From Gemmata obscuriglobus (GTDB taxonomy: Bacteria; Planctomycetota; Planctomycetia; Gemmatales; Gemmataceae), in NCBI RefSeq assembly GCF_008065095.1, contig NZ_CP042911.1, positions 1,920,001 through 1,952,000 on the forward strand: a DNA stretch of 32,000 nt. The letters run 5' to 3'. Positions 9,901-25,391 of the stretch are shown here, one piece after another. The notes under the pieces are model-generated. The model was not told where the DNA came from. It ran no database searches and was given only the letters and a program-made list of their open reading frames with translations. The translations under genes and the position numbers were made by a program. Position 1 is the first letter of the stretch. Every line of letters starts with the position of its first letter.

Positions 9901-10175
9901 ACCCCGTACAGCCACCCGGCCACGTTCGCCCCGCGCACGCTCCCCGCCTTGCGGGCCAGCACCAGGAACGTCGCCTGGAACGCGTCCTCCGCGTCGTGCG
10001 GGTCGGACAGCACCCGCCGACACACCGCGAGGACCATTGATCCGTGCCGGCGGACCAACTCCGCGAACGGGTTTTCGGCGCGCGACGCGATGAACGCGCT
10101 CAGGAGTTGCGCGTCCGTGTTCGGTGTGTCGTGGGCAAGGGCGAAACGCGCCAGCGCGACGGCGGAACGGGGCAC
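6936..10175 (-). CDS. Membrane-tethered ECF sigma factor fused to a large, internally duplicated extracytoplasmic region with HEAT-like motifs
   Basis: The start is GTG at 10175, with GGAGGG 7 nt upstream. Sigma region 2 reads DAEDAFQATFLVLARKA...VAGWLYGVAVRTA. Region 4 HTH reads LPELYRVAVVLCELRGLSRREAATELGVPEGTVSSRLAAAKRKL. A TM segment follows (LRAGAVVGAVCLALACGGLAMTG). After it come two ~400-aa repeats, each opening with L(I/V)xQLGSESFAEREAAExxL...AGL(R/K)SD(D/N)PE(V/I)xxRCAxVL. Confidence 0.85.
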   Translation of the reverse strand: MPRSAVALARFALAHDTPNTDAQLLSAFIASRAENPFAELVRRHGSMVLAVCRRVLSDPHDAEDAFQATFLVLARKAGSVRGANVAGWLYGVAVRTARGVRLARDRRERRADPDRKRDHTSPAPAPGDALAVAEQAAIVDEELARLPELYRVAVVLCELRGLSRREAATELGVPEGTVSSRLAAAKRKLASRLAARGVAPSVALAVLTSGSMTVSAELTRATTGAVSGAAGGTAGAAAAVVLKAMLFDQLRAGAVVGAVCLALACGGLAMTGSADAPPARGNATAPAPHPVDDSMARLIAQLGSESFAEREAAEKALRAHGTKAEPALTAGLRSDDPEVRARCAVVLVGVRKDALAALVKGFDPKVEPQPAHPIWKRFQAITGNTSASRELFARILKRPEWVARLDAAEANPAAAARQYRDAVTEIGTRFQSNMAVFFRIPVWPADTAEEAAYLLFLGSYPGTETAPPANDTRALFSTGEGRLHYAKGMSLGLRGLEIAPGPEKRYDATAALPSGSDRVFWKLLAAWLPRRADTSVLYNSFDLAVVSRAADVLPAARLIAGDGKRSAGERCGALRAVAQFGAASDLPLFAELYGDDTPVVFPPPPSRYSPGPRSRRLIASDHAVALALLLCDQDPFEYGFARAKGLFQRENRRPVIAGYGAEDFGFNDDPSRAAAHAKARAFLDEQKPKGPKKPPAPVAAQLVEQLGSESFAEREAAEEKLKELGAPAKAAVLAGLKSDNPEIARRCAAVLPVLRRADWQRAAAAFAANPDTFKHPVWTKLKAVTGAGPDARAIFAELLANERAFVGIVEAIENPNAAERLHRAAHARLAQDLKGWYAADAKRNAVTALTQWSPERGTYPAMLLLGTFPGTEAVPAHRVRLDAPRDEHTAWHACWAGLGAEQRPAPGALGRPPAALQRLFVAWLGARENPDAAVSGFSTLLMLDCREGAALAHAVAADAKRTERARGWALLYLAQGGTAADTAAAVAAFGDAREFASSRERTLQMRDIATAVALKLNGEEPADWGFSVRRGAAALKSAGPHQLGFTSNFVRDPLLKAAQAKVAELTAPLRTAPAPRAKP

Positions 10176-10698: not shown

Positions 10699-12294
10699 GT
10701 GCGCCGCCGTTCGCCACACGCCCGCGCTGCTCGCACCCTCCAACGAATTGGGGACGTGCCGGTAGCGCGGTTCACCCTGATCCGCCTTCGGAGGCCCGCC
10801 CGCGTGCGACCCGCCGTTCTCGCCGCTTTGACCTTGCTGCTGATCCACGGAACCGGGCGGGCGGCATCGCCCGCGGAGCTGGCGGCCCAGGTAGATGCGC
10901 GCATCGCCGCGCGGTGGAAGGCCGAGAAGGTTGCGCCCGCGGCTCTAGCCACCGACGCCGCGTTCGCGCGCCGCGCGTACCTCGATCTGGTCGGGCGCAT
11001 CCCGACGGTGGCGGAGGCGCGAGCGTTCATCAAGGACCGCGGCGCCGACAAGCGGCCGGCGCTCGTCGCGCGGCTGCTCGGCTCCGGCGGGTACGCCCGT
11101 CACTGGGCCACCTTCTGGCGCCGCGAGTGGGTGCCGCAGCCCCCGGCCGCGAGCGGCGACGAGATCGAGGGCTGGATCGCCGCCCAGTTGCGCGACAACG
11201 CCCCCTACGACCGCGTGGTCCGCGCCCTGCTGACCGCCCCGGCGGCGCGCGCCCCCGGGACCGCCCCGCAGACGTTCCTGGTCGCCAGCGAGTTCAAGCC
11301 CGAGAACCTCGCGGCCAACATCACCCGCGCGTTCCTGGGCATCAACCTGGACTGCGCGCAGTGCCACAACCACCCGTTCGCCCGCTGGACCCGCGACCAG
11401 TTCTGGGAAACGGCGGCGTTCTTCGCTCGCCCCTCGGAGGCCGGGGCCGGGGCTCAGAAGATCGAGATCGGCGTTCCGGGCACCGGCACGAAGCTCGGCC
11501 CGCAGCTCCTGACCGGGGAGCCGGTGACGTGGCCCGCGGCCCTCGCCCCCGACACCGGCCGCGGCGTGCTCGCCGCGTGGGTGACGAAGAAGGGCAACCC
11601 GTACTTCGCGAAGAACGCGGTCAACCGGGTGTGGGCGCAGCTCTTCGGCACCGGGCTGGTGGAACCGCTCGACGACCTGAGCGGCGAGAACCCCGCGAGC
11701 CACCCCGAACTGCTCGACGAACTCGCGGCGGCCTTCGCCGACAGCGGCTTCGACCTGAAGCACCTCACCGCTGCGCTGGTGCAGACGCGGACGTACCAGC
11801 TCTCGTCGGTGGCGCCACCGGGCGGCAGTTCGGACCCGCGGCTGTTCGCCCGCGCCGCCGTCCGCGGGCTGACGGGCGAGCAACTCTACGACAGCCTCCG
11901 GGGCGCGGCCGGGCTCCCGCCGGACCGCACCGACCTGGACCCGCTCAACGCGGCGGCCGCGCGCAAGCGGTTCGCCGAGCGGTTCCGGGGCGAGCGCGCG
12001 GGCACCGCCCAGCGGTCGATCCTGCAAAGCCTCGCCCTCATGAACGGCGCCGTCACCGCCGAACTGACCGACCCCGCCACGTCGCCGGCGCTCAAGGCGG
12101 TGGCGGGCGCGCCGTTCCTCGACGCCGCGGCGAAGGTGGAGGCGCTGTACCTCGCCGCGCTCGGGCGGACGCCGACCGCCGAGGAGTCCGCGGCGGCTGT
12201 CCGGCACCTGGCGCGCGGCGCGGACGCCGGCCCGGCGCTCGCGGACGTGCTCTGGGCGCTGCTCAACGGCAGCGAGTTCGGCACCAACCATTAA
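10699..12294 (+). CDS. DUF1549 (PSCyt2) / DUF1553 (PSD1) domain protein, exported
   Basis: DUF1549-type block: FARRAYLDLVGRIPTVAEARAF...LLGSGGYARHWATFWR...LGINLDCAQCHNHPFARWTRDQFW (CxxCH at 11353-11367). DUF1553-type block: NPYFAKNAVNRVWAQLFGTGLVEPLDDL...HPELLDELA..F...DLKHL...TRTYQLSS and a C-terminal LLNGSEFGTNH. There is a hydrophobic signal segment (AVLAALTLLLIHG). The start is ambiguous: GTG 10699 (track), GTG 10756, or GTG 10804 (the last has GGAGG 9 nt upstream). Confidence 0.85.
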   Translation: MRRRSPHARAARTLQRIGDVPVARFTLIRLRRPARVRPAVLAALTLLLIHGTGRAASPAELAAQVDARIAARWKAEKVAPAALATDAAFARRAYLDLVGRIPTVAEARAFIKDRGADKRPALVARLLGSGGYARHWATFWRREWVPQPPAASGDEIEGWIAAQLRDNAPYDRVVRALLTAPAARAPGTAPQTFLVASEFKPENLAANITRAFLGINLDCAQCHNHPFARWTRDQFWETAAFFARPSEAGAGAQKIEIGVPGTGTKLGPQLLTGEPVTWPAALAPDTGRGVLAAWVTKKGNPYFAKNAVNRVWAQLFGTGLVEPLDDLSGENPASHPELLDELAAAFADSGFDLKHLTAALVQTRTYQLSSVAPPGGSSDPRLFARAAVRGLTGEQLYDSLRGAAGLPPDRTDLDPLNAAAARKRFAERFRGERAGTAQRSILQSLALMNGAVTAELTDPATSPALKAVAGAPFLDAAAKVEALYLAALGRTPTAEESAAAVRHLARGADAGPALADVLWALLNGSEFGTNH

Positions 12295-12309
12295 TCGGAG
12301 ACCGACACC

Positions 12310-13239
12310 GTGAGATCCCACCGCCCGCGCCGCGGGTTCACCCTCATTGAGCTGCTGGTGGTGATCGCGATCATCGCGATCCTCATCGGGCTGCTGCTAC
12401 CCGCCGTGCAGAAGGTGCGGGCCGCCGCCGCCCGGCTCCAGTGCGCGAACAACCTGAAGCAGATCGGGCTGGCGGTCCACAACTACCACGACGCGGAAAA
12501 GGGCCTGCCCTACCTCGTCTTCAACAACACGTCGTCCGTCAGTCCGAAGCACGCCTGGACAGCGTACCTGTTGCCGTACCTGGAGCAGGGGGCGGTTGCG
12601 AGTTCGTATTCGTGGAACGTGGACTTCTCCGATCCGGCGAACCAAGCGGCCGCAAACGCCTCGATCCCGGTCTTCGTCTGCCCGGCGACGCCCCGCTCGA
12701 AGGCCAAGGTGGACCTCGTCCCCGGGTTCGCCACGGCGACGAACCCGGCGGTCACCGGCTCGCCGAGCGACTACGTCGGCTTCTGGCGGTTCTGGGACCC
12801 CATCGCGTTCCCAACGACGCCGTGGCGGGACACGGTCGGCGCGCTGGACGGGTACGACAACACCCAGCGCAAGCTGACGCAAATCACGGACGGCACGTCG
12901 AACACGGCGATCATCGGCGAGTCGGCCGGGCGGCCGGACAAGTGGGTGCGCGGGAAGTTGGACGGCGCCCTGCCGGTCCAACACGGGCTCGGCGGGGCGT
13001 GGGTCGGATGGGAAGCGACTTCGGTGAAGAGCTTCGACTCGACCGGCCAGACCAACCACGGCCCGTGCATTATCAACTGCTCGAACAACGGCGGGCTGTA
13101 CGGCTTCCACACCGGCGGCATCAACGTCCTCTTCGCGGACGGCTCGGTTCACTTCCTCCGGGACGGGGCGGACAAGTTGGTGGTCTACGCGCTCGTCAGT
13201 TACAACCTCGGCGAGGTCCTTTCGAACAGCGACTTCTGA
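12310..13239 (+). CDS. DUF1559 protein 1 (type IV pilin-like N-terminal cleavage/methylation signal, H-X9-DG C-terminal motif)
   Basis: GTG start. The N-terminus reads RRG|[52 protein letters not shown]. The conserved core is TDGTSNTAIIGE, and the C-terminal motif is GFHTGGINVLFADGSVHFL. Confidence 0.9.
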   Translation: MRSHRPRRGFTLIELLVVIAIIAILIGLLLPAVQKVRAAAARLQCANNLKQIGLAVHNYHDAEKGLPYLVFNNTSSVSPKHAWTAYLLPYLEQGAVASSYSWNVDFSDPANQAAANASIPVFVCPATPRSKAKVDLVPGFATATNPAVTGSPSDYVGFWRFWDPIAFPTTPWRDTVGALDGYDNTQRKLTQITDGTSNTAIIGESAGRPDKWVRGKLDGALPVQHGLGGAWVGWEATSVKSFDSTGQTNHGPCIINCSNNGGLYGFHTGGINVLFADGSVHFLRDGADKLVVYALVSYNLGEVLSNSDF

Positions 13240-13293
13240 CGGTTCAGGGTTCGCCACCCGTCCGTACTTCACTCAACCGTAACCCGTGAAGAC

Positions 13294-13719
13294 ATGAAGG
13301 TGATCGTTTTGGTTCGCCGTTCGTTCATTGCTTTCGCCTCGGCCGCAGCGGTGTCGTGTGGCGGCGCCGAACGGTCGGACGTTCAGCCCGTGCGGGGCAC
13401 GTGCCTCGCGGCCGGTCGTCCGGCCGTCGGCGCGCGCGTCGTTCTCGTGCCCGTCGCTGCCGGACGGGGTTCCCCCGCCTCCGGTGTCGCCGGTTCGGAC
13501 GGCACGTTCCGGCTCACGACGGTCACCAAAGACGACGGGGCGAAGGAGGGCGAGTACGCGGTCACGATCACGTGGCCGGACCCGCAGCGCGCCAACGGCG
13601 ACGGGACCGGCGAAGCGGCCGACCGGCTGCGCGGGGCGTACCGGGACCCCGCCAAGCCGTTCTGCCGGGTAACGGTCCGGCCGGGGGAGAACGAGTTACC
13701 CCCGTTCGAAATCAAGTGA
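13294..13719 (+). CDS. Small lipoprotein 1 (beta-sandwich / carboxypeptidase-regulatory-like), partner of DUF1559-1
   Basis: It has a signal plus lipobox-like AAAVSC|GG. It shares motifs with three paralogs downstream: P.RG.....G.P..GA.V, DGTFRLTT....[26 protein letters not shown], and a terminal P.FEI. The fold assignment is tentative. Confidence 0.75.
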   Translation: MKVIVLVRRSFIAFASAAAVSCGGAERSDVQPVRGTCLAAGRPAVGARVVLVPVAAGRGSPASGVAGSDGTFRLTTVTKDDGAKEGEYAVTITWPDPQRANGDGTGEAADRLRGAYRDPAKPFCRVTVRPGENELPPFEIK

Positions 13720-13788
13720 TGTCTCGTCCCGTACTCGACATCCGTCCCGGCTTGCAACCCAACGTTCACGCTCGATCCGAGGTGCTCC

Positions 13789-14712
13789 ATGAAGCGCGTC
13801 CGCTCCACTCGCCCCGCGTTCACCCTCATTGAGCTGCTGGTGGTGATCGCCATCATCGCGATCCTCATCGGCCTGTTGCTGCCGGCCGTGCAGAAGGTCC
13901 GCGCCGCCGCCGCCCGGATGGTGTGCGGCAACAACCTGAAGCAGATCGGGCTGGCGGTCCACAACTACGCCGGCGCCAACGAGGACTGCTTCCCGAAGTA
14001 CGACGGCACCAACCGCCGGCTGAGTTGGACCACGCTGCTGCTCCCGTACCTGGAGCAGGACAACGTGTACAAGATGATCGACCAGACCCAGACCTGGGCC
14101 GCGACCGCCAACGGGTGCCAGAACCGGGCCGCCGGGCAGGTCCCGCTCAAGGTGTTCGTGTGCCCGGCGAACCCCGGCGCACAGCGGATGCCGCTCATCG
14201 CCGACCCGGAGGTGACCGGCGGCAGCTTCCGCGCCGCGCCCACCGACTACACCGTGGCCGAGGGGTTCTACTACTCGACCAACCCGTTCAACTGGGTCGA
14301 GGGCACCATCCGCGGCACCGCCGCGATCGGCAAGCGGCGCATCACCGACGTGACCGACGGCACCTCGAACACGCTCGTCATCTTCGAGAACGCGGACGTG
14401 CCGAACCTGTGGATCAACGGCAAGCTGACCACCGACAACACGAACACGGTCACCACCTACCAGCACAGCAACAACGGCACCTGGTGCAACCCGAACAACA
14501 ACAACATGCGGGGCTGGGACGCGACCGGCACCGTCCAGTTCGGCCCGTACATCGTGAACAAGCGCAACGGGGCTGCGCTGTACGGGTTCCACACCGGCGG
14601 CGCGCACGCCCTCATCGGCGACGGGTCGGTCCGGTTCTTCGGCGAGAACACCACCGCCGAGACCGTCAAGCGGTACGTCAGCTTCAACGGCGGCGACATC
14701 AACGACGACTGA
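13789..14712 (+). CDS. DUF1559 protein 2 (pilin-like N-terminus, H-X9-DG)
   Basis: The N-terminus reads TRPA|[52 protein letters not shown]. The core is [12 protein letters not shown], and the C-terminal motif is [19 protein letters not shown]. Confidence 0.9.
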
Positions 14713-14753
14713 GCCGGGGCGGCCGAACCGTCCCGATCCGAGCGAGGGGCAGA

Positions 14754-15182
14754 ATGCGAATCTGGTTGACGATGGCCGCGGTGTGCGCGGCGCTGGCGGC
14801 GGCCGGGTGTGGCTCGAAGCGGCCCGGCGAGGTGCCCGTGTACCCGGTGAAGGGGCGGGTCACCTTCAGGGGCGAGCCGATGCCGCACGCGGTGGTCACC
14901 TTCTACCCGCTCGGGCAGCCGTTCGCGCAGGCGCTCAAGTGCCGCGCGAATGCCGACCCGGACGGGAACTATCGCCTCACCACTTATGAACTGAACGACG
15001 GCGCCCCGGAGGGCGAGTACGGGGTCATCCTGTACGTCCCGCCGGCGCCCCCGGAGCCGCACGCGCTCGAGGTGCCGAACCCGCCCGACCGCTTGAAGGG
15101 CGCGTACCTGGACCCCGCGAAATCGAAGCTGAGGTACACCGTCCGGCCCGAGCCGAACACCATTAACATCGACCTGCCGTAA
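14754..15182 (+). CDS. Small lipoprotein 2, partner of DUF1559-2
   Basis: The ATG at 14754 lies inside track ORF 13923..15182. The sequence is MRIWLTMAAVCAALAAAGC|GS (lipobox), VYPVKGRVTFRGEPMPHAVVTFYP, DGNYRLTTYELNDGAPEGEYGV, PDRLKGAYLDPAKS, PNTINIDLP. Confidence 0.75.
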   Translation: MRIWLTMAAVCAALAAAGCGSKRPGEVPVYPVKGRVTFRGEPMPHAVVTFYPLGQPFAQALKCRANADPDGNYRLTTYELNDGAPEGEYGVILYVPPAPPEPHALEVPNPPDRLKGAYLDPAKSKLRYTVRPEPNTINIDLP

Positions 15183-15189
15183 CGGAGGG

Positions 15190-16110
15190 GTGCGCGTGAA
15201 GCGGTTCACTCGCGGGTTCGCCGCGGTCGACCTGTTGGCGGCCGTCGCGCTGGGGACGGCCGCCGCCGGGCTGTTGCTCCCGGCCGTGCAGAAGGTGCGG
15301 GCGGCCGACGCCCGCGCCCGGTGCGCCGACCACCTGCGCCTGATCGGGAAGGGCGCGGCCGGGTACGCCGCGGCCCACGACGGGAACCTGCCGCGCGACG
15401 GCTCGGCGCCGCGCGGGAGTTGGAACAGCGAGATCCTGGCCCACATCGGCGAGGAGAAGCTGGCGAAGGCGTACGCCCCGGGCCAGGACTGGTTCGCGCC
15501 CGGCCCGGGCGGCAACCGGGACGTGGCCGCGACCCGCGTGCCCGCGTTCCTGTGCCCGGCGGCGCCGCACCCGGACCGCTGGGTGCTCACGCAGGACCCC
15601 GACGACGCCGCGCGGAGCTTCAAGGCCGCCCCGACGGACTACGTCGGCTCCGCGGGCGCGTACTACCAGAACAACGACCCGGGCAACCTGCACCCGGGCG
15701 CGATGCACCACCGCAAGATCACCCGCCGCATCCACGTGTCGGATGTTCAGGACGGCGCCGCCAACACGCTGCTGGTGGTCGAGATGGCGGACAAGCCGAA
15801 CGGGTGGCGCGCCGGGAAACTGGCCGAGGACCGGTCGGGGAAGCCGCAGATGCCGGCGCTCAACGGCCAGTGGGCGGCGCCGAACTGGAACCACCTGCGC
15901 TCGTACACGGCCGACGGCCGGGAGCAGTTCGGCCCGTGCGCGGTGAACTGCGCGAACGGGGCCAGCATCTACGGGTTCCACCCCGGGGGCGCGAACGCCC
16001 TGTTCGTGGGCGGGTCGGTGCGGTTCCTCAAGGCCGGGCTGTCCCAGGAACTGCTGGTCGCGCTCGTGAGCATCGCCGGCGGCGAGGTGCTCGGCCCGAA
16101 CGACTTTTGA
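15190..16110 (+). CDS. DUF1559 protein 3, divergent paralog with degenerate pilin signal and degenerate H-X9-DG motif
   Basis: GTG start at 15190. The N-terminus TRG|[44 protein letters not shown] replaces [16 protein letters not shown] (E5 becomes D, and the Ile/Val helix is replaced by Ala/Gly). The core [12 protein letters not shown] is retained. The C-terminal motif [19 protein letters not shown] has DG changed to GG. Confidence 0.8.
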
Positions 16111-16133
16111 CCCACCACAGGAGATCCGGACTC

Positions 16134-17018
16134 ATGCGCGCTCGCCGTGGCTTCACGCTGATCGAGCTATTGGTGGTGATCGCGATCATTGCGATCCTCA
16201 TCGGCCTGTTGCTGCCCGCCGTGCAGAAGGTGCGCGACGCCGCGGCGCGGATGAGCTGCCAGAACAACCTGAAGCAGATCGGCCTCGCGCTGCACAACTA
16301 CGAGAACGCCAACGGCAAGCTCCCCCCGCGGGCCTTCCCGGGCACCGGGGCCGCGTGGGGCACGCTGATCCTGCCGCACATCGAGCAGGACAACGTGTTC
16401 AAGCTGTACCGCCCGGACCTCGACTGGCGCGACCCGCTCAACCAGGACGCGGTCACCAAGCCGGTCAAGACGTACAAGTGCCCGTCCTCGCCCGAGCGGA
16501 CCGCGAGCGGCACGTTCAACGGCGGGGCGTGGGCGTCGAGCGTCAGCGACTTCGGGGCCAACGGCGGCCTCGACCCGTCCCTCATGACGCTCGGCTGGCT
16601 CCCCGCGACGACCAGCCGCAACGGGGTCTTCATGCAGGGGATCGAGTTGCGGGTCACCGACATCACCGACGGCACCTCGACCACCCTGGCCGTGGTCGAG
16701 ATGGGCGGGCGGCCGAACCGCTGGAACGCCGGCCGGGACACCGGGGCCATCCAGAACGCCGGGGTGAAGGGGCCGTGGGCGCACACCCACAACCACATCG
16801 AGGCCCGCGGGCACTCGGCCGACGGCACCACCAAGCCCGGCGCCTGCACCGTCAACTGCACCAACGCCGACGGCATCTACGGGTTCCACACGAACGGCGC
16901 GAACGTGGCGCTGATGGACGGGTCGGTCCGGTTCGTCACGCCGGCGCTGAACAACTTCGTCCTGTACGCCGTCGCGACCCCGAGCACCGGTGAGGTGGTG
17001 AATGGCTCGGACTTTTAG
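16134..17018 (+). CDS. DUF1559 protein 4 (pilin-like N-terminus, H-X9-DG)
   Basis: The ATG at 16134 lies inside track ORF 15321..17018. The sequence is MRARRG|[52 protein letters not shown], then [13 protein letters not shown], then [19 protein letters not shown]. Confidence 0.9.
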
Positions 17019-17436
17019 CTTGGCCGCCCTGTTCGTCGTGCTGGCCGCCGGCTGTGGACCCCGGGACGGCCGCAAGCCGGTGATCCCTGTTTCGGGACGG
17101 GTGACGTGCAAGGGCGAGCCGATGGCCGGCGCGATGGTCGGGTTCCACCCGCTCGACGACCCGGACCCGCGGGCCGTACGCGCGCAGGCCACCGCCGACA
17201 AGGACGGCCGCTACACGCTGACCACCTACGCCACCGGCGACGGCGCGCCGGCCGGCGCGTACGCGGTCACGGTCTACTGGCCCGGGCCGCGCCCGAAGGG
17301 CCAGGCCTTGGAACCGGGCGAGGACGAAGAGGTCCCGCCGGACCGGCTCAAGCGCGCGTTCGCGGACCCGAGAGCGACCAAGCTGCGCGCCGCCGTGCGC
17401 GCCGAACCGAACACGATCGACTTCCACCTGCCGTGA
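17002..17436 (+). CDS. Small lipoprotein 3, partner of DUF1559-4 (17-nt overlap)
   Basis: The sequence is [18 protein letters not shown]|GP (lipobox), [74 protein letters not shown]. The start overlaps the 3' end of the preceding gene. Confidence 0.75.
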
Positions 17437-17447
17437 GGACCCCGGCC

Positions 17448-18356
17448 GTGCCCCGACGTTCCGCCTTTACCCTGATCGAACTGCTGGTGGTGATCGCGAT
17501 TATTGCGATCCTCATCGGCCTGTTGCTGCCGGCCGTGCAGAAGGTGCGCGAGGCCGCCGCGCGCATGAAGTGCCAGAACAACCTGAAGCAGATCGGGCTG
17601 GCCATGCACAATTACGCGGGCGCGAACAACGGGCTGCCGCCGCGCCGCTCGTACCCGCTGCCGGAGCCGAACGTCGGCTGGCCGGTGCTGATCCTCGATT
17701 ACCTCGAGCAGGGGAACGTGAAGGCCGCGCTGAAAATGGATCAGAGCTATTTCGCCCCCGAGAACAACGAGGCCCTCAAGAAGCCGCTGCCGGTCTACCA
17801 GTGCCCGGCCGCCCCGAGCCCCGAGCGGCTCATCAAAATGAACGCCAACGGCATGTACGGGGCCGTCGGCGACTACTACGCGTGCAACATCGTTCAAGAC
17901 CCCACGTTCGCCATGCCCGGCGCGGCCGGGGGCACCAGCGCCGCACTGATCGACGACATGGCACTGAGTCAAGGAAGTGCGGTGCGTCCGCTCACAAACT
18001 TCCCGGACGGCACCTCAAGCACCCTCGTGCTGCGCGAGGTGGCGGGCCGCCCGGACGGGTACAACGCGACGGGCGCCCGGACGCCCTACGCCGACGGCGT
18101 TTCTTCGATCGGGGCGTGGGCGTCGTACCAGTCGGCGGTGGTCGAGAGCTGGGACGAGTCGGGCACCACCAAGAACGGCACCTGCGTCGTCAATTGCAAC
18201 AACTTTTACGGAACGTACGCGTTCCACCCGGCCGGCGCGAACCATGTGTTCGCCGACGGGTCGGTCCGCACGGTCCGCAAAGGGGTCAACAAGTACCTGT
18301 ATTACGCCCTGGTGACCCGCAACGGCGGTGAGGTGCTGAGCGATGGCGAGTTCTGA
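17448..18356 (+). CDS. DUF1559 protein 5 (pilin-like N-terminus, H-X9-DG)
   Basis: GTG at 17448, in frame within track ORF 17106..18356, whose upstream part is Arg/Gly-rich junk overlapping lipoprotein 3. The sequence is VPRRSA|[52 protein letters not shown], then [13 protein letters not shown], then [19 protein letters not shown]. Confidence 0.85.
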
Positions 18357-18783
18357 CCGCGCGCCGCCCGCGGCGCGGCTGGCAGGGGCGCTGGCCCTGC
18401 TCACCGCGCTCGGCTGCGGCGCGGGCGGCCCTCCGCCGGCCCAGCCGACGCGCGGCGAGGTCCGCCTTCAGGGGAAGCCGGTGGCCGGCGCCTGGGTGGT
18501 GCTCACCGCGACCGAGGGCGATAAGGCGCGCGCCATGAAGCCGTTCGGCCGGACCGGCCCGGACGGCACGTTCCGGCTCCGCACCTACGAGGGCGAGGAC
18601 GGCGCGCCCGCCGGCGAGTACGCGGTCACGATCACCTGGCCCGGCCCGCCGCCGAAGGGCGACCCGGACGCGACCGAAGGGCCGGACCGGCTCAAGGGGC
18701 GGTTCGCGGACCCGGCCAAGGCGCGGTGGAAGGTCCAGATCGCCCCCGGCGACAACACGCTCCCGGCGTTCGTACTCGACTGA
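18343..18783 (+). CDS. Small lipoprotein 4, partner of DUF1559-5 (14-nt overlap)
   Basis: The sequence is ...[13 protein letters not shown]|GA (lipobox), [73 protein letters not shown]. Confidence 0.75.
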
Positions 18784-18809
18784 GTTCCGTTACCCACACA
18801 GGAGCACCG

Positions 18810-20096
18810 GTGCGCACCTTTACGAACCCACTCACCCGCCGCGGACTGTTCCGCTCGGCGGCCGGCGCCGGCCTCGGGGCCGGGTTCACGTCCGGCTGGC
18901 TCCGCGCGCTCGCCGCGGGCGCGCCCAAGAAGCCCGCCAAGTCGGTCATCGTGCTGTGGCTCGACGGCGGGCCGGCGACCATCGACCTGTGGGACCTGAA
19001 GCCGGGCCACGCGAACGGCGGGCCGTTCCGGGCGATCGACACCGCCGCCCCCGGCCTGAAGATCGGCGAGCACCTGCCGAAGCTCGCGAAGCTCGGCAAG
19101 GACCTCGCCGTGGTGCGGTCGATGTCCACCAAGGAGGGCGACCACGGGCGGGCCACCTACCTCCTGCGCACCGGGTACACCCCGCTGGGCGCGATCCAGT
19201 ACCCGGCCGCCGGCGCGGTCATCGCCAAGGAGCTGGGGGCCGAGGCCGGCGACCTGCCGAACTTCGTCAGCGTCGCGCCGGCGCGCAACGCCGCGTCCGG
19301 CGGCGGGTTCCTCGGGCCGCACTTCGACCCGCTCGTGGTCGGCGAGCTGACCGCCCCGCAGGACGGGCTGAAGGTGCCCGACCTGGCCCGCACCGCCGGC
19401 GTCGGCGACGACGCGCAGCGGGCGCGGCTCGAACTGCTCGCCGGCGCCGAGCGGCAGTTCGCCGCCGGCCGCGAGTCGGCGGTCGCGGGCAGCGTCCGGG
19501 CCGCGACCGCCCGCGCGGTGCGGCTCATGAAGCCGGAGGCCGCGGCGGCGTTCGACCTGGAGCAGGAGAAGCCGAAGGCGCGCGACGCCTACGGCCGCGG
19601 GCTGTTCGGTCAGGGGTGCCTGCTGGCCCGCCGGCTGGTGGAGCGGGGCGTGCCGTTCGTGGAGGTGACGCTCGACGGCTGGGACACCCACCAGAACAAC
19701 TTCGACCGCGTGAAGGACCTGTGCGGCGCCCTCGATGCCGGGTTCGCCGCTCTGCTGGCGGATCTGAAGGACCGCGGGATGCTGGACAGCACGCTGGTGG
19801 TGTGCCAGGGGGAGTTCGGCCGCACGCCCAAGATCAACGGCAACACCGGGCGCGACCACTGGCCCGCGTCGTGGGCCGTGGCCCTCGCCGGCGGCGGGCT
19901 GAAAACGGGGCAGGCGGTCGGCAGAACGAGCACGGACGGCGCCGCGGTCGAGGACAAGCCGCGCGGGGTGCCGGACCTGATCGCCACGGTCGCGAAAGCG
20001 GTCGGCATCGACCCGAAGAAGCAGAACATGTCGAACGTGGGCCGGCCCATCCGGGTCGCCGACCCGGACGCCGAGCCCATCAAGGAGCTGCTGTGA
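18810..20096 (+). CDS. DUF1501 protein 1 (alkaline-phosphatase/sulfatase-superfamily fold, Tat signal)
   Basis: GTG at 18810, 5 nt after AGGAG (18800-18804), in frame with track ORF 18726..20096. Twin-arginine signal: LTRRGLFRSAAGAGLGAG. DUF1501 blocks: VIVLWLDGGPATIDLWDLKPGH, VVRSMSTKEGDHGRA, FGQGCLLARRLVERGVPFVEVTLDGWDTHQNNF, LVVCQGEFGRTPKING..GRDHWPASWAVALAGGG. Confidence 0.9.
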   Translation: MRTFTNPLTRRGLFRSAAGAGLGAGFTSGWLRALAAGAPKKPAKSVIVLWLDGGPATIDLWDLKPGHANGGPFRAIDTAAPGLKIGEHLPKLAKLGKDLAVVRSMSTKEGDHGRATYLLRTGYTPLGAIQYPAAGAVIAKELGAEAGDLPNFVSVAPARNAASGGGFLGPHFDPLVVGELTAPQDGLKVPDLARTAGVGDDAQRARLELLAGAERQFAAGRESAVAGSVRAATARAVRLMKPEAAAAFDLEQEKPKARDAYGRGLFGQGCLLARRLVERGVPFVEVTLDGWDTHQNNFDRVKDLCGALDAGFAALLADLKDRGMLDSTLVVCQGEFGRTPKINGNTGRDHWPASWAVALAGGGLKTGQAVGRTSTDGAAVEDKPRGVPDLIATVAKAVGIDPKKQNMSNVGRPIRVADPDAEPIKELL

Positions 20097-21649
20097 ACCG
20101 GGTCATTTTCGTCGCGCTGGTCGGGGCCGCGGTCCTGTGCGCCGCGCCCGCGAGACCGGCGGAACCCGGCCCCAGCCCGCGGGCCGACGCGCTCGAACTG
20201 CTGTTCATCGGGGGCGAGAAGCCCGCGCGGCTGGAGCTGCGCGCCGAGATCGACGGGCGGCCCGTCCCCGCGGTCTGGGATGACACGTTCGCGAAGCTGT
20301 TCGCGTACTTCGACCGCGACGCCGACGGCGCCCTCGACGCCACCGAGGCGGCCCGCCTGCCGTCGGCGTTCGCGCTGCGGCAGGTGCTGTGGGGGCAGTC
20401 CACGCCCTTCACGGGCGCCGCGCCGCCGCTTGCGGACATCGACCTCAACGGGGACGGCAAGGCGAGCCCCGACGAACTCGCCGACTTCTACCGCCGGGCT
20501 GGGCTGGGCGGGGTGCTCGTGGGGGTCGGGAGGGCACCGGCGACCGATGCCTTAACCGATGCGCTGCTGAAGCACCTCGACACCAACAAGGACGGCAAGC
20601 TCACCGAGGCGGAGGTGAAGGCGGCCCCCGACGCGCTGAAGGCGCTCGACGCCAACGACGACGAGCTGATCGGCCCCGGCGAACTGGTCGAGCGCACCGC
20701 CTACCCCGGCGCGCTCGGGGCGATCCTGGTGACGGCCCCGGCGCCGAACGGGGCGCCCGACGCCGTCGCGGACGCGCTCCCGTTCGTGGTGCTGCCGCTG
20801 CGCACCGCGGACCGCGGCTGGGAGGCCGCCGTGGCGGCCCGTCGCGAAAAGGTCGGGCTATCGGCGTTCACGGCCGAGTCGCTACGTGGTCCGCGAAGGC
20901 CGTCACCAGCGGCCGTGTGGAAGGCACGGTTCGGGGAGAAGCTGACCGGCGGCGCGCTGGAGCCGGTCGGCGGAAAGCTCCCCGCGAGCGGCCGGCTCGT
21001 GTACGCCGCCGGCGCGGTGCGGCTCGAACTCCGGTCGGACGAGGGGAAGCTCGCCGAGCCGGTCGCCGCCGCGCGCAAGCGGTACGCCGCCCAGTTCGCC
21101 GAGGCCGACGCCGACGCGAACGCGCGCCTCGACCCGAAGGAGCTCGCGGCCCCGAAGGCCGGGACGCTCAAACAGCTCGCGGCGGCGGCCGACCGGAACG
21201 GCGACGGCGCCTTGAGCGACACGGAGCTGACCGCGTGGCTCGACCTCCAGGACCAGATCGCGAGGGGGCACGTGCTGCTGACGGTGATCGACCACGGCGC
21301 CGGGCTGTTCGAGCTGCTGGACGCGGACCACGACGGGGCGCTGTCGGTGCGCGAGCTGCGCGGCGCGTGGGACCGGCTGACGGCCGCGGGGTGCGTGACC
21401 GACGGCCGTTTCGACCGCGCGAAGCTGCCGCGCCAGTTGCTCGCCGCGATCAGCCGCGGGCACCCGAAGTCGTCCCCGGGCAAGCCGGCCCGGCCCGGCC
21501 CGGCGTGGTTCGTGGCGATGGACCGCAACGGCGACGGGGACGTGTCGCGCCGCGAGTTCACCGGCCCGGCTGCGGTGTTCGACACGCTCGACGCCGACAA
21601 GGACGGCCTCCTCGACGCCCGCGAGGCCGGCGCCGCGGTTAAAAACTGA
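20093..21649 (+). CDS. Secreted multi-EF-hand (8 Ca2+-loop) protein 1, stop/start-coupled to DUF1501-1
   Basis: The GTG at 20093 overlaps the DUF1501 stop (GTGA). The N-terminal part of track ORF 18956..21649 is an out-of-frame shadow of DUF1501. The signal-like N-terminus is VNRVIFVALVGAAVLCAAPARPA. There are eight DxDxDG-type loops: DRDADGALDATE, DLNGDGKASPDE, DTNKDGKLTEAE, DANDDELIGPGE, DRNGDGALSDTE, DADHDGALSVRE, DRNGDGDVSRRE, DADKDGLLDARE. Confidence 0.8.
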   Translation: MNRVIFVALVGAAVLCAAPARPAEPGPSPRADALELLFIGGEKPARLELRAEIDGRPVPAVWDDTFAKLFAYFDRDADGALDATEAARLPSAFALRQVLWGQSTPFTGAAPPLADIDLNGDGKASPDELADFYRRAGLGGVLVGVGRAPATDALTDALLKHLDTNKDGKLTEAEVKAAPDALKALDANDDELIGPGELVERTAYPGALGAILVTAPAPNGAPDAVADALPFVVLPLRTADRGWEAAVAARREKVGLSAFTAESLRGPRRPSPAAVWKARFGEKLTGGALEPVGGKLPASGRLVYAAGAVRLELRSDEGKLAEPVAAARKRYAAQFAEADADANARLDPKELAAPKAGTLKQLAAAADRNGDGALSDTELTAWLDLQDQIARGHVLLTVIDHGAGLFELLDADHDGALSVRELRGAWDRLTAAGCVTDGRFDRAKLPRQLLAAISRGHPKSSPGKPARPGPAWFVAMDRNGDGDVSRREFTGPAAVFDTLDADKDGLLDAREAGAAVKN

Positions 21650-21776
21650 CCGCGCCCGGACAAAGCGTTGTCAGCCCTCGGGTTCGCATCGCTTCCGCGC
21701 CCCCGAAAAGTGATAATGCCGGTGCCCGCCGCCCGCACCCGGCTCGACCTGAATCGCTCGCTCACCGGAGGCCCTG

Positions 21777-23072
21777 ATGTTCTCACTGCGTGTTCGGCCG
21801 TCGCGCCGGGACTGGCTGCGGCTCTCGGCCGCCGGCGCGGTCGGCGTGTCACAGTCCGGGTGGCTCGGCGCGCTGGCCGACGACGCCGCCCGCGCCCCGA
21901 AGAAGCACAAGTCCGTCATCCTCTTGTGGATGAACGGCGGCCCCGCGACCATCGACCTGTGGGACCTGAAGCCGGGCCACGACAACGGCGGCCCGTTCCG
22001 GGAGGCCGCCACCGCCGCACCCGGGCTGAAGATCAGCGAGCACCTGCCGAAACTCGCGAAGCTCGGCAAGGAGCTGGCCGTGGTCCGCTCGATGGCGACC
22101 CGCGAGGGCGACCACCAGCGGGCGCGCGTCGTCGGCCTGACCGGGTACACCCCGCAAGGGGCGATCCAGTTCCCCGCGCTCGGCGCGCTGGTGGCGCACG
22201 AGTTCGACGACCCGAAGGCCGACCTGCCCGGGTTCGTCGCGGTCGGCGGCCGGTCGGACGTCGGCGGCGGGTTCCTCGGGCCGCGGTTCGCGCCGTTCGT
22301 GGTGGGCGGGGAGCGCGAGCGCGGCGGCCCTGCGAACGCCGACCTGCGCGTCGCCGACCTCGACCCACCGGCCGGCCTCGGCACGGAGGCGCAGGTGAAG
22401 CGCCTCGACCTGCTCGCGGGGCTGGAGAAGGACTTCGCGCCCGGGAAGGCGCACCCGGTGGCCGAGACGATGCGCGCCGCGACCGACCGCGCCGTCCGGC
22501 TGATGCGCCCGGAGGCCGCCGCTGCGTTCCGGCTCGAGGACGAGACGCCGCAGGTGCGCGACGCCTACGGCCGCGGCACCTTCGGCCAGGGGTGCCTGCT
22601 CGCCCGCCGGCTGGTGGAACGGGGCGTGCCGTTCGTGGAAGTGACGCTCGACGGCTGGGACACGCACAACAACAACTTCGACCGCGTCAAGGCGCTCTCC
22701 ACCACGCTCGACACCGGGTTCTCCGCTCTGCTGGCGGACCTGAAGGACCGCGGGCTGTTGGACCGCACGCTGGTGGTGTGCCAAGGGGAGTTCGGGCGGA
22801 CGCCGAAGATCAACGGGCAGAGCGGCCGCGACCACTGGCCCGCGTCGTGGGCCGTGGCCCTCGCCGGGGCCGGCGTCAAGGGCGGGCAGGCGGTCGGCAA
22901 GACCAGCAAAGACGGCACGCAGGTGGAGAGCGACCCGACCCGCACCGCGGACCTCGTCGCCACCGTGATGAAGGCCGCCGGGCTGGATCCGATGAAGCAG
23001 AACATGTCGAACGTGAGCCGGCCCATCCGGCTGGCCGACCCGAGCGGCAAACCGATCAAGGAGCTGCTGTGA
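21777..23072 (+). CDS. DUF1501 protein 2 (Tat signal), paralog of 18810..20096
   Basis: ATG at 21777, 5 nt after GGAGG. Tat motif: PSRRDWLRLSAAGAVGV. It is collinear with paralog 1 and shares long identical runs: GGPATIDLWDLKPGH, HLPKLAKLGK, FGQGCLLARRLVERGVPFVEVTLDGWDTH, LVVCQGEFGRTPKING, GRDHWPASWAVALAG. Confidence 0.9.
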   Translation: MFSLRVRPSRRDWLRLSAAGAVGVSQSGWLGALADDAARAPKKHKSVILLWMNGGPATIDLWDLKPGHDNGGPFREAATAAPGLKISEHLPKLAKLGKELAVVRSMATREGDHQRARVVGLTGYTPQGAIQFPALGALVAHEFDDPKADLPGFVAVGGRSDVGGGFLGPRFAPFVVGGERERGGPANADLRVADLDPPAGLGTEAQVKRLDLLAGLEKDFAPGKAHPVAETMRAATDRAVRLMRPEAAAAFRLEDETPQVRDAYGRGTFGQGCLLARRLVERGVPFVEVTLDGWDTHNNNFDRVKALSTTLDTGFSALLADLKDRGLLDRTLVVCQGEFGRTPKINGQSGRDHWPASWAVALAGAGVKGGQAVGKTSKDGTQVESDPTRTADLVATVMKAAGLDPMKQNMSNVSRPIRLADPSGKPIKELL

Positions 23073-24556
23073 CCCGTTTCACGTTCGGCGCGCTGGTTCT
23101 GGGGCTGGCGGCCGTCGGTCTGTGCCCGGCGGCCGACCCGGGCGCGGCCAAGCCGGCCGGGGTGCCGGTCGGGTTCGCGCTGCTCGACGGCGACGCGCTC
23201 CGGCGCATCGAGGTGCGGGCCGAAGTCGACGGCGTCCCGGTTTCCGCGATCTGGGACGAGACGTTCGCGAAGCTGTTCGCGTACTTCGACCGCAACGCCG
23301 ACGGCGCTCTGGACGCGAAGGAGGTGACGCTGCTGCCCCCGGCGCGGGCGCTGCGCCAGTCGCTGGGGAGCGGGTTCACGCCGCCGACCGGGCCGGTCCT
23401 GACGCTCGCGGACCTGGACCGCAACGGTGACATCAAGGTGAGCCTCGACGAGTTGGTGGCCTACTACCGCGCGAACGGGCTGGGCAACATTCAGGTCGGC
23501 GCCGGCACGCTGCCCGCGAGCGCCGACCTGACCGCGGCGCTGGTCAAGCACCTGGACACGAATTCTGACGGCAAAGTGAGCGAAGCGGAGTGGCGGGCGG
23601 CGGCCGACGTGCTGAAGGCGCTCGACAAGAACGACGACGAGCTGATCGGCGCCGGCGAACTGGTGCCGAAGGCCGTGTACCCCGGCGCCGCGGGCGCGCT
23701 GCTCCTGTCCCCACCGGGCACGGACACAACCGGGCAACCCGCGGCGGTCGCGGCTCTGCCGCTGGTGCTGCTCCCGGCCGACCCGAAGGACGCGAACTGG
23801 GCCGCCGAGGTCGCCCGCCGCGACCCGCGGCACAAGGTGACCGACGCGGCGGCGTGGCGCCAGAAGGCGGCCGACGTTACGTGGGCGGTGAATCTGTCCG
23901 ACAAAGGTGGTGCGTCGGACCGGCTCGCGTTCGCCGGGACCGCGGTTCGTGTGGACGGCTGGGCCGCTCCGGGGAAGGCGGGCGAAGCCGCCGCGACCGC
24001 GCGCAAACAGTTCGTCGCGCAACTGGACGCGCCCGAACCGGCCGACGCACCCAAGGGGCGCCGGCCGGCCGGCGGGCTGGGGTGGCTGACACCGATCGCC
24101 GACCGCGACGGCGACGGCACCCTGGACCGCAAGGAACTCGACGGGTGGCTCGACCTGCAAGCCCAGATCATGCGGGGGCAGGTCTTCCTCACGGTCCTCG
24201 ACGGCGCCGGGTTGTTCGAGCTGCTGGACGCGAACCACGACGGGGCGCTGTCGGTGCGGGAGCTGCGCGGCGCGTGGGACCGGCTGAAGGCCGCGGGGTG
24301 CGTCGCCGACGGCGCGGTCGCCCCGGCGAAGGTGCCGCGCGGGGTTCTGTGTGCGGCGAGCCTGGGTTACCCGCGGACGCTGGCGGCGAGCACCCGCGGC
24401 GGCCCGGCGTGGTTCGTGGCGATGGACCGCAACGGCGACGGGGACGTGTCGCGCCGCGAGTTCACCGGCCCGGCCGCGGTGTTCGACACGCTCGACCTTG
24501 ATAAGGACGGGCTGCTCAGTGCCGAAGAGGCCGGGAAGGCGAACCCGAAGAAGTGA
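23069..24556 (+). CDS. Secreted multi-EF-hand (8 Ca2+-loop) protein 2, stop/start-coupled to DUF1501-2
   Basis: The GTG at 23069 overlaps the DUF1501-2 stop (GTGA). The N-terminus is VTRFTFGALVLGLAAVGLCPAADP. The loops are DRNADGALDAKE, DRNGDIKVSLDE, DTNSDGKVSEAE, DKNDDELIGAGE, DRDGDGTLDRKE, DANHDGALSVRE, DRNGDGDVSRRE, DLDKDGLLSAEE. It is collinear with 20093..21649. Confidence 0.8.
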   Translation: MTRFTFGALVLGLAAVGLCPAADPGAAKPAGVPVGFALLDGDALRRIEVRAEVDGVPVSAIWDETFAKLFAYFDRNADGALDAKEVTLLPPARALRQSLGSGFTPPTGPVLTLADLDRNGDIKVSLDELVAYYRANGLGNIQVGAGTLPASADLTAALVKHLDTNSDGKVSEAEWRAAADVLKALDKNDDELIGAGELVPKAVYPGAAGALLLSPPGTDTTGQPAAVAALPLVLLPADPKDANWAAEVARRDPRHKVTDAAAWRQKAADVTWAVNLSDKGGASDRLAFAGTAVRVDGWAAPGKAGEAAATARKQFVAQLDAPEPADAPKGRRPAGGLGWLTPIADRDGDGTLDRKELDGWLDLQAQIMRGQVFLTVLDGAGLFELLDANHDGALSVRELRGAWDRLKAAGCVADGAVAPAKVPRGVLCAASLGYPRTLAASTRGGPAWFVAMDRNGDGDVSRREFTGPAAVFDTLDLDKDGLLSAEEAGKANPKK

Positions 24557-24749: not shown

Positions 24750-25391
24750 ATGTGGCCCAACCGCGAAGAAACCGACCGCCTGCTCGACGAGGCCCGCGCC
24801 GGCGCGCCGGGCGCGGTCGACAAGCTCCTCGGCGAGTTCCGCGACCCGCTGCGCCAGGTCGTCGGCCTGCGGCTCGACCCCGCCGTCGCGCGCCGCGTGG
24901 ACGCCTCCGACATCGTTCAGGACGTGCTGATCGAGGCCAACCAGCGGCTCACCGAGTACCTGAAGAAGCCCGACATGCCGTTCCACCTGTGGCTGCGGCA
25001 CCTCGCGCAGGACCGCATCATCGACACGCACCGCCGGCACCGGCTGGCGCAGCGCCGCAGCGTGGACCGCGAGCAGCCGATCGCCCGCCCGGCGTGGAAC
25101 GACGAGTCGAGCGTCTCCCTCGTCGCGCAACTGATCGACACCGAGCGCACCCCCACGTCCGAAGCGATCCGGCTGGAGCTCCAGCGCCGGCTCGCGACCG
25201 CGATCGACAAGCTCTCCGAGGACGACCGCGAGATCGTGCTCATGCGGCACCACGAGGCGCTGTCGAACCAGGAGGTGGCGCACGCGCTGCAGTTGACCGA
25301 GGCCGCGGCGTCGATGCGGTACTTGCGGGCGCTGCGGCGGTTGCGCACGGTGCTCGTGCCGGACGGACAGGAGCGGCCCGATGACGTCTGA
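24750..25391 (+). CDS. ECF-type sigma-70 family RNA polymerase sigma factor (planctomycete subgroup)
   Basis: The N-terminal extension is ETDRLLDEARAGAPGAVDKLLGEFRDPLRQVVGLRLDPAVARRVDASDIVQDVLIEA. Region 2 reads FHLWLRHLAQDRIIDTHRRH. Region 4 HTH reads LSEDDREIVLMRHHEALSNQEVAHALQLTEAAASMRYLRALRRLR. The layout matches the planctomycete ECF group that is typically linked to Ser/Thr kinases (from memory of TIGR02984 and the ECF-STK literature). Confidence 0.9.
   Translation: MWPNREETDRLLDEARAGAPGAVDKLLGEFRDPLRQVVGLRLDPAVARRVDASDIVQDVLIEANQRLTEYLKKPDMPFHLWLRHLAQDRIIDTHRRHRLAQRRSVDREQPIARPAWNDESSVSLVAQLIDTERTPTSEAIRLELQRRLATAIDKLSEDDREIVLMRHHEALSNQEVAHALQLTEAAASMRYLRALRRLRTVLVPDGQERPDDV

Follow-up and report, generated by a model that had tools for sequence, protein, structure and literature searches.

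Background

The closest described counterpart of the locus analysed here is the PSCyt/PSD-DUF1501 module of the Planctomycetes-Verrucomicrobia-Chlamydiae (PVC) bacteria, in which a DUF1501 protein with a twin-arginine translocation (Tat) signal is paired with a PSCyt2/PSD1 protein; it is a conserved, many-copy module without an assigned function, for which a redox role has been considered possible (Studholme 2004; Kamneva et al. 2012, PMC3542564). We examined an array of 14 genes in Gemmata obscuriglobus (assembly GCF_008065095.1, contig NZ_CP042911.1, positions 1,920,001 to 1,952,000), a stretch of 32,000 nucleotides that we call the window and within which positions are numbered below. The array joins the same pair to DUF1559 proteins, small lipoproteins, and EF-hand proteins, and represents an expanded version of a self-contained cluster whose conservation extends across the class Planctomycetia. 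We use the shorthand P for PSCyt2/PSD1 (DUF1549/DUF1553), N for DUF1559, l for the small lipoprotein, S for DUF1501, and E for the 8-EF-hand protein. As in the described module, S has a PSCyt2 and PSD1 neighbor on the same strand, in the window at a distance of nine N and l genes (6.5 kb). Unlike many, though not all, of its counterparts there, P has neither a PSCyt1 domain nor carbohydrate-binding or Big_2 modules; further differences are the apparent translational coupling of S to an 8-EF-hand protein and the inclusion of two DUF1559 genes, with or without a lipoprotein gene, in the unit. Neither EF-hand nor pilin-like partners are mentioned by Kamneva et al. (PMC3542564); carbohydrate-binding modules on PSCyt proteins were reported by He et al. 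2017 (PMC5615132). The preliminary description of this DNA had called the array an uncharacterised system, which is right insofar as no tested function was found, but not for the PSCyt/PSD-DUF1501 core, described already in 2012 (PMC3542564). The core pair is thus known, whereas an association of that pair with DUF1559, the lipoprotein, and the EF-hand protein appears to be undescribed in the searchable literature.

Other known systems share single traits with the array. The DUF1800-DUF1501 pairs of Proteobacteria (PMC5122149) likewise combine a Tat-exported DUF1501 protein with an all-alpha partner, and the P protein of the window has a weak DUF1800 match (E 0.0016); they differ in phylum, in the lack of EF-hand and DUF1559 partners, and in a partner without the PSCyt2 CxxCH region. 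With the pseudopilins GspG-K of the type II secretion system (T2SS) and with type IV pilins, the DUF1559 proteins share the class III signal G-F-x-x-x-E, a hydrophobic N-terminal helix, similarity over about 97 GspG positions, and the occurrence of several non-equivalent subunits side by side, but they have a globular domain of roughly double the size, with an H-X9-DG motif of its own, their genes lie outside any machine operon, and there are tens of paralogues per genome. Polysaccharide-utilisation loci (PULs) of Bacteroidota resemble the array in that genes for exported or lipidated proteins are co-localised, apparently modular, and present in many copies; they differ in having a SusC/SusD pair, carbohydrate-active enzymes (CAZymes), a conserved regulator, and a transporter, all of which the array lacks. 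S1 sulfatases of the alkaline-phosphatase superfamily show local profile similarity to DUF1501 in the C-terminal half of the core and are, like DUF1501 presumably, periplasmic and metal-dependent, whereas DUF1501 has neither the formylglycine motif nor a Pfam Sulfatase match and aligns only in part.

Among the paralogue families of planctomycete genomes, DUF1559 is the largest: P. limnophila has 68 copies, of which two are essential (PMC10632474), and R. baltica has 74, the family being noted there as stress-responsive (PMC2754498). None of the families discussed here appears in a 2025 review of the phylum, and no paper in the searchable literature assigns a tested function to any of them, as the preliminary description had supposed. 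G. obscuriglobus is known to accumulate dextran in its periplasm, and dextran-gold binds to pilus-like fibres of unknown composition that sit at crateriform structures (Boedeker et al. 2017, PMC5394234).

Conservation of the cluster across Planctomycetia

Using aligned EF-hand homologues as the anchor and scanning one genome per species, we obtained 79 loci from Gemmatales, Isosphaerales, Pirellulales, and Planctomycetales, whose six-frame open reading frames (ORFs) were annotated with hidden Markov models (HMMs) built from the window's own proteins. Among the 52 loci with at least 7.5 kb of sequence upstream of E, a DUF1501 gene directly precedes E in 48, a PSCyt2/PSD1 gene is found in 47, DUF1559 genes (usually two) in 43, and a lipoprotein gene in 24. 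Within this set, N-N-P-S-E is the order seen most often (14 loci), followed by N-l-N-P-S-E (8), l-N-N-P-S-E (4), and P-S-E (4), and the clade nearest to the window has P-N-l-S-E or P-N-l-N-S-E. With the downstream flanks of the same loci as a control for copy number, DUF1559 genes number 2.1 per 10 kb on the upstream side of the EF-hand gene versus 0.11 per 10 kb on the downstream side, a 19-fold enrichment. The DUF1501 tree follows cluster architecture. All-against-all clustering of the flank ORFs of the 79 loci revealed no further conserved flank family; its largest group, Ser/Thr kinases, occurs in 15 loci at variable positions and on either strand. Precomputed Pfam annotation independently gives P-N-l-N-S-E for Schlesneria paludicola and N-N-P-S-E for Fimbriiglobus ruber, in both cases with unrelated neighbors, and a 22-kb contig from a metagenome-assembled genome (MAG) carries a minimal version in the order of the window, namely P (535 residues), DUF1559 (296), lipoprotein (146), DUF1501 (434), and EF-hand protein (519).

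The array had been proposed to form one functional unit, and the recurrence of its families in a fixed order, with unrelated flanks, in four orders of Planctomycetia bears this out. It had also been cautioned that some of the adjacency might be due to chance; the fixed order in four orders and the 19-fold enrichment of DUF1559 over the downstream flanks argue otherwise. The array is this self-contained, conserved cluster of the class in enlarged form, and P, S, E, DUF1559, and the lipoprotein very probably function together as a conserved module.

Several loci deserve separate mention. On the contig of one Gemmataceae MAG (L007), the minimal P-N-l-S-E cluster lies between genes for a resolvase/recombinase, an HTH_17 (excisionase-like) protein, and DNA_pol_A (L001, 2731-3303, 3893-6566, and 13474-15824), and the cluster may sometimes travel on a mobile element. 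Seven MAGs labelled "uncultured Alcaligenaceae" or "Bacteroidales" (L016, L019, L022, L033, L060, L075, and L040) carry clusters of the planctomycete type, 37-59% identical to the query, for which mis-binning or mislabelling of the assemblies is the probable reason. L003 (9584-11530) shows the families in a looser arrangement: a DUF1559 fragment and a lipoprotein gene are followed by a gene for a 241-residue protein with a faint EF-hand match, and a separate PSCyt1/PSCyt2/PSD1-DUF1501 pair lies 4 kb downstream. In the chromosome of another Gemmataceae MAG (L011, OZ245717.1, 9695-13195; protein P0295), with the order N-l-N-S-E-P, E reads without a stop into P, giving 1065 residues. We did not count this as a "Rosetta stone" fusion, since P retains its own Met and signal peptide after the junction, which indicates loss of a stop codon or a sequencing or assembly error.

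Composition of the array

The G+C content of the window is about 70%, and at such a high value raw ORF lists are full of spurious frames; the 14 genes were therefore tested by codon-position composition. Third-position GC is 0.84-0.98 in all 14 ORFs, every one of which lies on the + strand. The spacings from g1 to g14 given in the preliminary description (15, 54, 69, 41, 7, 23, -17, 11, -14, 26, -4, 127, and -4 nt) were identical when each was recomputed, and its domain assignments (PF07583, PF07587, PF07596, PF07394, and EF-hand) were reproduced by HMM. Exact-sequence look-ups of the g12 and g13 proteins returned no record. The genes are as follows.

g1 (P): 10804-12294, + strand, most likely extent; PSCyt2/PSD1 protein with a Sec-type signal (Pfam, homologue length, start site).
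g2 (N): 12310-13239, + strand; DUF1559 protein, prepilin signal RRG-FTLIEL (predicted cut between G and F), C-terminal H-X9-DG motif (PF07596 and N_methyl).
g3 (l): 13294-13719, + strand; small lipoprotein, lipobox AVSC, assigned by its own family HMM (E 3.5e-39) to the transthyretin-like beta-sandwich family.
g4 (N): 13789-14712, + strand; DUF1559 protein, signal A-FTLIEL, orthologue of the first DUF1559 gene in G. algarum.
g5 (l): 14754-15182, + strand; small lipoprotein, lipobox AAGC (motif, family HMM).
g6 (N'): 15190-16110, + strand; DUF1559 protein of the proximal subfamily, degenerate class III signal G-FAAVDLL with Asp replacing Glu5.
g7 (N): 16134-17018, + strand; DUF1559 protein, canonical prepilin signal RRG-FTLIEL, nearest to the DUF1559 protein of the minimal cassette of L007.
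g8 (l): 17002-17436, + strand; small lipoprotein, lipobox AAGC, overlapping g7 by 17 nt (AlphaFold2 beta-sandwich).
g9 (N): 17448-18356, + strand; DUF1559 protein, signal A-FTLIEL, nearest to the DUF1559 protein of L016.
g10 (l): 18343-18783, + strand; small lipoprotein, lipobox ALGC, overlapping g9 by 14 nt.
g11 (S1): 18810-20096, + strand; DUF1501 protein, Tat signal TRRGLF, of the "P-first" cluster lineage (Pfam E 1.6e-112, tree).
g12 (E1): 20093-21649, + strand; 518 residues, Sec signal, 8 canonical EF-hand loops, start overlapping the g11 stop by 4 nt; 100% identical to an NCBI protein of G. obscuriglobus.
g13 (S2): 21777-23072, + strand; second DUF1501 protein, Tat signal SRRDWL, of the "N-N-P-S-E" cluster lineage, here without its own P or N.
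g14 (E2): 23069-24556, + strand; second EF-hand protein, 54% identical to g12, overlapping g13 by 4 nt.

Export signals were judged from motif and hydrophobicity, and on this basis the claim that every product carries one holds for 14 of 14, with that of g6 degenerate. A promoter/terminator scan showed no + strand terminator inside the array, its counts matching shuffled expectation.

DUF1501 and EF-hand proteins

Both S proteins of the window, g11 and g13, match PF07394 (DUF1501) with E 1e-108 to 1e-112, and both E proteins, g12 and g14, match EF-hand families, each having a hydrophobic N-terminus and 8 canonical 12-residue loops plus one degenerate loop. The EF-hand family is large, with 1,724 representatives of 50%-identity clusters at E <= 1e-30. 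At 65 of 72 S-E junctions, including both pairs of the window, the start codon of E overlaps the stop codon of DUF1501 by 4 nt; the retention of this overlap points to translational coupling and a stoichiometric partnership between the two predicted products.

By sequence, no significant DUF1501 relative was found in the PDB. A 47-sequence DUF1501 profile gave near-threshold PDB matches (E 0.3-2) that are almost all S1 sulfatases, and hhalign of DUF1501 against four Pfam-verified planctomycete sulfatases produced a local match in the C-terminal core (E 4.6e-5). This likeness fits Pfam's placement of DUF1501 in the alkaline-phosphatase clan, and agrees with the hydrolase fold that the preliminary description had supposed for periplasmic proteins of the array. 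DUF1501 is not, however, an S1 sulfatase: it lacks the C/S-x-P-x-R formylglycine motif and has no PF00884 match even at E <= 10.

A weak match of the EF-hand protein to the LanM model NF053806, together with genes of tetrahydromethanopterin (H4MPT) metabolism nearby, led us to consider a link to lanmodulin and lanthanides. It was rejected: the score is 54.7 bits against an equivalog cutoff of 135, the EF loops have R, L, T, A, or K and never P as their second residue, and the flanks are not conserved.

The PSCyt2/PSD1 protein

The Pfam matches of g1 are PF07583 (PSCyt2/DUF1549, E 2e-40) and PF07587 (PSD1/DUF1553, E 1e-41). The preliminary description had placed its start at 10699, which yields 531 residues; its homologues are about 500 residues long and cover 88-93% of that reading. 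A GTG at 10804, with GGAGG 9 nt upstream, opens a 496-residue protein with a classic signal peptide, MRPAVLAALTLLLIHGTGRAAS, at its N-terminus. Because of the homologue length, the GGAGG before the GTG, and the signal peptide, g1 most likely extends from 10804 to 12294 and encodes these 496 residues.

A C-A-Q-C-H-x-H-P motif is invariant across 115 homologues of g1. The AlphaFold2 (AF2) model of P, built from 115 sequences, is of high confidence (predicted local distance difference test, pLDDT, 90; predicted template modelling score, pTM, 0.90) and nearly all alpha-helical. Foldseek found no structural neighbor of this model in the PDB (best E 0.42, template modelling score, TM, 0.14) and none that is cytochrome-like, and a sequence and profile search of the PDB with PSD returned nothing significant. 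A PSCyt1 domain and carbohydrate- or protein-binding modules are absent from g1 and its 120 best homologues, which carry PF07583 and PF07587 only.

DUF1559 proteins and small lipoproteins

Five products (g2, g4, g6, g7, and g9) match PF07596 (DUF1559) above the cutoff, with E 1e-22 to 5e-48. In g2, g4, g7, and g9, the N-terminus has the form [GA]-FTLIEL, with Ala at -1 in g4 and g9, followed by a near-invariant hydrophobic helix; these four thus show the class III prepilin features (G or A at -1, F at +1, E at +5, and a helix of about 20 residues) and match N_methyl, and g2 scores above cutoff for TIGR02532 as well. The fifth, g6, has Asp at +5 and no N_methyl match. An NCBIfam scan of g2 and g6 gave scores of 35.8 and 22.9, respectively, for TIGR04294 (H-X9-DG), against a cutoff of 19. 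We considered whether DUF1559 is the major pseudopilin GspG and rejected it, since its score with the GspG model TIGR01710 is 38.2 bits against an equivalog cutoff of 88.85, the alignment spanning model positions 1-97 of 134. The Pfam identifier of DUF1559 is SBP_bac_10 ("solute-binding protein family 10"), a name that would imply a fold like that of periplasmic binding proteins. A PDB sequence search with DUF1559 returned pilin N-terminal helices only.

In a neighbor-joining tree, distal DUF1559 copies (far from P) and proximal copies (adjoining P or S) form separate orthologous clades. The window's proximal-type copy is g6, with the orthologues L004_4631, L010_7711, and L012_7793. The exact [GA]FTLIEL signal occurs in 43 of 64 distal genes versus 2 of 41 proximal ones; the remaining proximal genes comprise 8 with Glu variants, 9 with Asp variants, and 22 without a regular-expression match, and the proximal copies of Schlesneria and Fimbriiglobus have no N_methyl motif according to Pfam. 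The idea that proximal copies, like GspK, always lack Glu5 is weakened by the 10 of 41 that keep Glu.

The four lipoproteins are 141-146 residues long, and Pfam gives only weak CarboxypepD_reg matches for them, to which a relaxed Pfam scan added nothing. The AF2 model of g8 (pLDDT 86.7) is a beta-sandwich whose best PDB matches are transthyretin-, intradiol-dioxygenase-, and Cna-B-like, with E of at least 1.4e-3. A relationship to PilP or the GspC homology region (GspC-HR) was rejected, as neither is among the top 50 Foldseek matches. On lipoprotein-anchored metagenome contigs, a DUF1559 gene is directly adjacent and on the same strand in 29 of the 30 loci whose flanks reach 700 bp or more on each side. 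Since N-l pairs occur by themselves in half of the loci with long flanks (see below), N-l is a widespread two-gene unit in its own right.

Growth of the array

By blastn, the window is 88-96% identical in nucleotide sequence to the corresponding locus of G. algarum (L004), which has the order P-N-l-N-S-E-S-E, except for two stretches absent from the latter:

12495-13809, + strand; 1.3 kb, one N-l unit (most of g2, all of g3, and the 5' end of g4).
16109-18764, + strand; 2.65 kb, g7-g10, two N-l cassettes.

The first approximately 180 nt of four DUF1559 genes (12336-12515, 13818-13997, 16151-16330, and 17465-17644) constitute a family of direct repeats, D1, of 77-85% identity, and one of the breakpoints relative to G. 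algarum falls inside a D1 repeat, which may serve as a recombination substrate for the gain or loss of cassettes. The genes g7 and g9 are nearest to DUF1559 genes of different lineages (the minimal MAG cassette of L007 and L016, respectively). A recent tandem duplication of the five DUF1559 genes was rejected, since each has separate orthologues elsewhere and even the shared 5' 180 nt are only 77-85% identical.

The two S-E pairs also differ in origin. In the DUF1501 tree, S1 falls among the "P-first" clusters and S2 among N-N-P-S-E clusters, which normally have their own P; as neither P nor N accompanies S2 here, the second S-E pair was added without its partners. The array is therefore a composite of an ancestral Gemmata P-N-l-N-S-E cluster, three extra N-l cassettes, and an S-E pair from another cluster lineage. 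Expansion by N-l and N-N-l between P and S-E recurs in other Gemmataceae: L090 (JAESFO010000061.1, 6370-18358) has an even larger array, P-N-l-N-N-l-N-N-l-N-N-l-S-E, and L089 has P-N-l-N-N-l-S-E-N-l.

A proposed mechanism and its alternatives

As a plausible mechanism, all products would meet in the periplasm or envelope. S, as a metal-dependent hydrolase of the alkaline-phosphatase/sulfatase superfamily, would fold in the cytoplasm before its export by the Tat pathway, and could form a roughly 1:1 complex with E, which would supply or sense Ca2+. P, the long-known obligate partner of S, would contribute an all-alpha protein with an invariant CxxCH-x-H site, a candidate haem or metal binder. 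The DUF1559 proteins would be cut by a prepilin peptidase and either stay anchored in the inner membrane or build a short pseudopilus or fibre; their role, shared with the lipoprotein, might be to bind substrate or to keep the P-S-E enzyme in position at the envelope, and the variable number of N-l cassettes might tune binding specificity. The explanation as a whole, an enlarged conserved module with an envelope enzyme complex and pseudopilin-like proteins, could in our estimate equally be right or wrong. The specific mechanism, in which pseudopilins would provide an enzyme complex with a scaffold or a means of capture, is tentative and on balance doubtful.

A number of points weigh against this explanation. 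Any P, S, or E gene is found in only 5 of the 10 lipoprotein-anchored loci with long flanks, and one clade of the DUF1501 tree (6 loci) has P-S-E with no DUF1559 gene nearby; N-l pairs that stand alone and a P-S-E clade without DUF1559 mean that the pseudopilin-like and the enzyme genes can work separately. A gap of 127 nt lies before g13, at which a putative transcript of the array may be divided in two. No gene for a pilus-assembly ATPase, platform protein, prepilin peptidase, or secretin was found in or near the cluster. The sulfatase likeness of DUF1501 is local (79 columns, hhalign probability 69%), and its lack of the formylglycine motif has been noted above. Only motifs predict that P binds haem or metal and that E binds Ca2+, each step of the mechanism is one that we infer, and the searchable literature yielded no experiment on any of these families.

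Several other explanations have to be weighed against a co-located enzyme complex with a pseudopilin-like scaffold. The cluster might be a secretion cassette, in which P, S, and E are Sec and Tat cargo moved across the outer membrane by a type II-like machine encoded elsewhere, and the DUF1559 proteins are cargo-specific pseudopilins, the distal ones polymerising and the proximal ones capping. This would account for the GspG-like N-terminal region and prepilin signal of DUF1559, for the two non-equivalent DUF1559 subfamilies per cluster, one with a degenerate signal, and for the export signal on every product. The T2SS cap subunit GspK likewise lacks Glu5, and folded enzymes exported by the Tat pathway are classical T2SS cargo. 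However, we know of no precedent for pseudopilin genes linked to their cargo, N-l pairs often stand alone while P-S-E clusters exist without N, there is no secretin or ATPase gene nearby, and the parallel with GspK is loose, as Glu or Asp at position 5 is often retained among proximal copies; we consider a secretion cassette unlikely. A redox module, in which P would be a c-type haem protein (CxxCH) exchanging electrons with the substrate of DUF1501 and the EF-hand and DUF1559 proteins would be accessory, has in its favor the invariance of C-A-Q-C-H-x-H-P in the 115 homologues, the published proposal of Kamneva et al. for PSCyt/PSD-DUF1501 (PMC3542564), and the Tat export of S, which suits a cofactor-containing enzyme. 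Yet the high-confidence model of P has no cytochrome-like neighbor, g1 has no PSCyt1 domain, and S resembles hydrolases rather than oxidoreductases, which makes such a role decidedly unlikely.

The comparison with PULs, made in the preliminary description, envisages a locus for the capture and degradation of polysaccharide under the control of extracytoplasmic function (ECF) sigma factors. ECF sigma genes do flank the array here, PSCyt/PSD proteins elsewhere carry carbohydrate-binding modules (PMC5615132), DUF1800-DUF1501 pairs accompany chitin-synthase operons (PMC5122149), and G. obscuriglobus binds dextran on pilus-like fibres (PMC5394234). Against it, a Pfam scan of the window revealed no SusC/SusD-like pair, TonB-dependent receptor or transporter, glycoside hydrolase, or polysaccharide lyase, nor is any of these conserved among relatives, g1 has no carbohydrate-binding module, and ECF sigma genes occur within 3 kb in 6 of 47 loci, close to the background of approximately 8-9% predicted from their flank density of 0.14 per 10 kb. 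For want of SusC/SusD-like or CAZyme genes the analogy fails, and we regard a PUL-like locus as highly improbable. Chance adjacency of hugely expanded paralogue families without any functional link would be conceivable where DUF1559, DUF1501, and PSCyt/PSD each occur in tens of copies per planctomycete genome (PMC10632474; PMC2754498), but it is scarcely credible when the gene order recurs in four orders amid unrelated flanks, DUF1559 is locally enriched 19-fold, the S-E junction keeps its 4-nt overlap, and gene trees follow cluster type.

A bolder form of the proposed capture mechanism is that DUF1559 proteins are the subunits or tips of the planctomycete pilus-like dextran-binding fibres or of periplasmic pseudopili, the clusters being a counterpart of PULs in which N-l cassettes capture polymer for P-S-E. 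We think this quite unlikely to be correct, but if it were, it would account for the expansions of DUF1559 and of DUF1501/PSD and for the entry of macromolecules into the periplasm without TonB-type transporters. More generally, the cluster is the first genomic link between DUF1559 and PSCyt/PSD-DUF1501, two large unexplained expansions that no paper we found connects, and it becomes a candidate for what the substrate-binding fibres of planctomycetes consist of and for how macromolecules are processed in the enlarged periplasm. Being small, sharply bounded, and conserved in four orders, it also gives deletion, pull-down, and structural studies a well-delimited set of five or six genes to aim at. 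Gimesia is among the genera whose loci carry the cluster, and genetic tools exist for Planctopirus limnophila, Gimesia maris, and G. obscuriglobus.

Flanking genes

The presence of ECF sigma genes on both sides of the array in this genome was confirmed:

6936-10175, - strand; ECF sigma factor (regions 2 and 4 in the first approximately 190 residues) with a C-terminal extension of about 880 residues that has a weak HEAT_2 match only; divergent from the array.
24750-25391, + strand; ECF sigma factor, TIGR02984 (planctomycete subfamily 1) above cutoff.

The control of the array by ECF sigma factors that had been read from this arrangement did not hold up, and was rejected together with control by Ser/Thr kinases, given that ECF genes occur at background frequency and kinases vary in position and strand. 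Downstream, the second ECF sigma gene is followed by three small ORFs without a Pfam match and then by a Ser/Thr protein kinase gene (24750-28874), an arrangement suggestive of a sigma/kinase signalling unit that has nothing to do with the array. Upstream, a group of genes (3231-4696 and 5608-6630) comprises those for a formaldehyde-activating enzyme (Fae) and a methylene-tetrahydromethanopterin dehydrogenase-like protein (H4MPT-linked C1 transfer), followed by those for a PEP-CTERM protein (4785-5420) and a DUF1464 protein.

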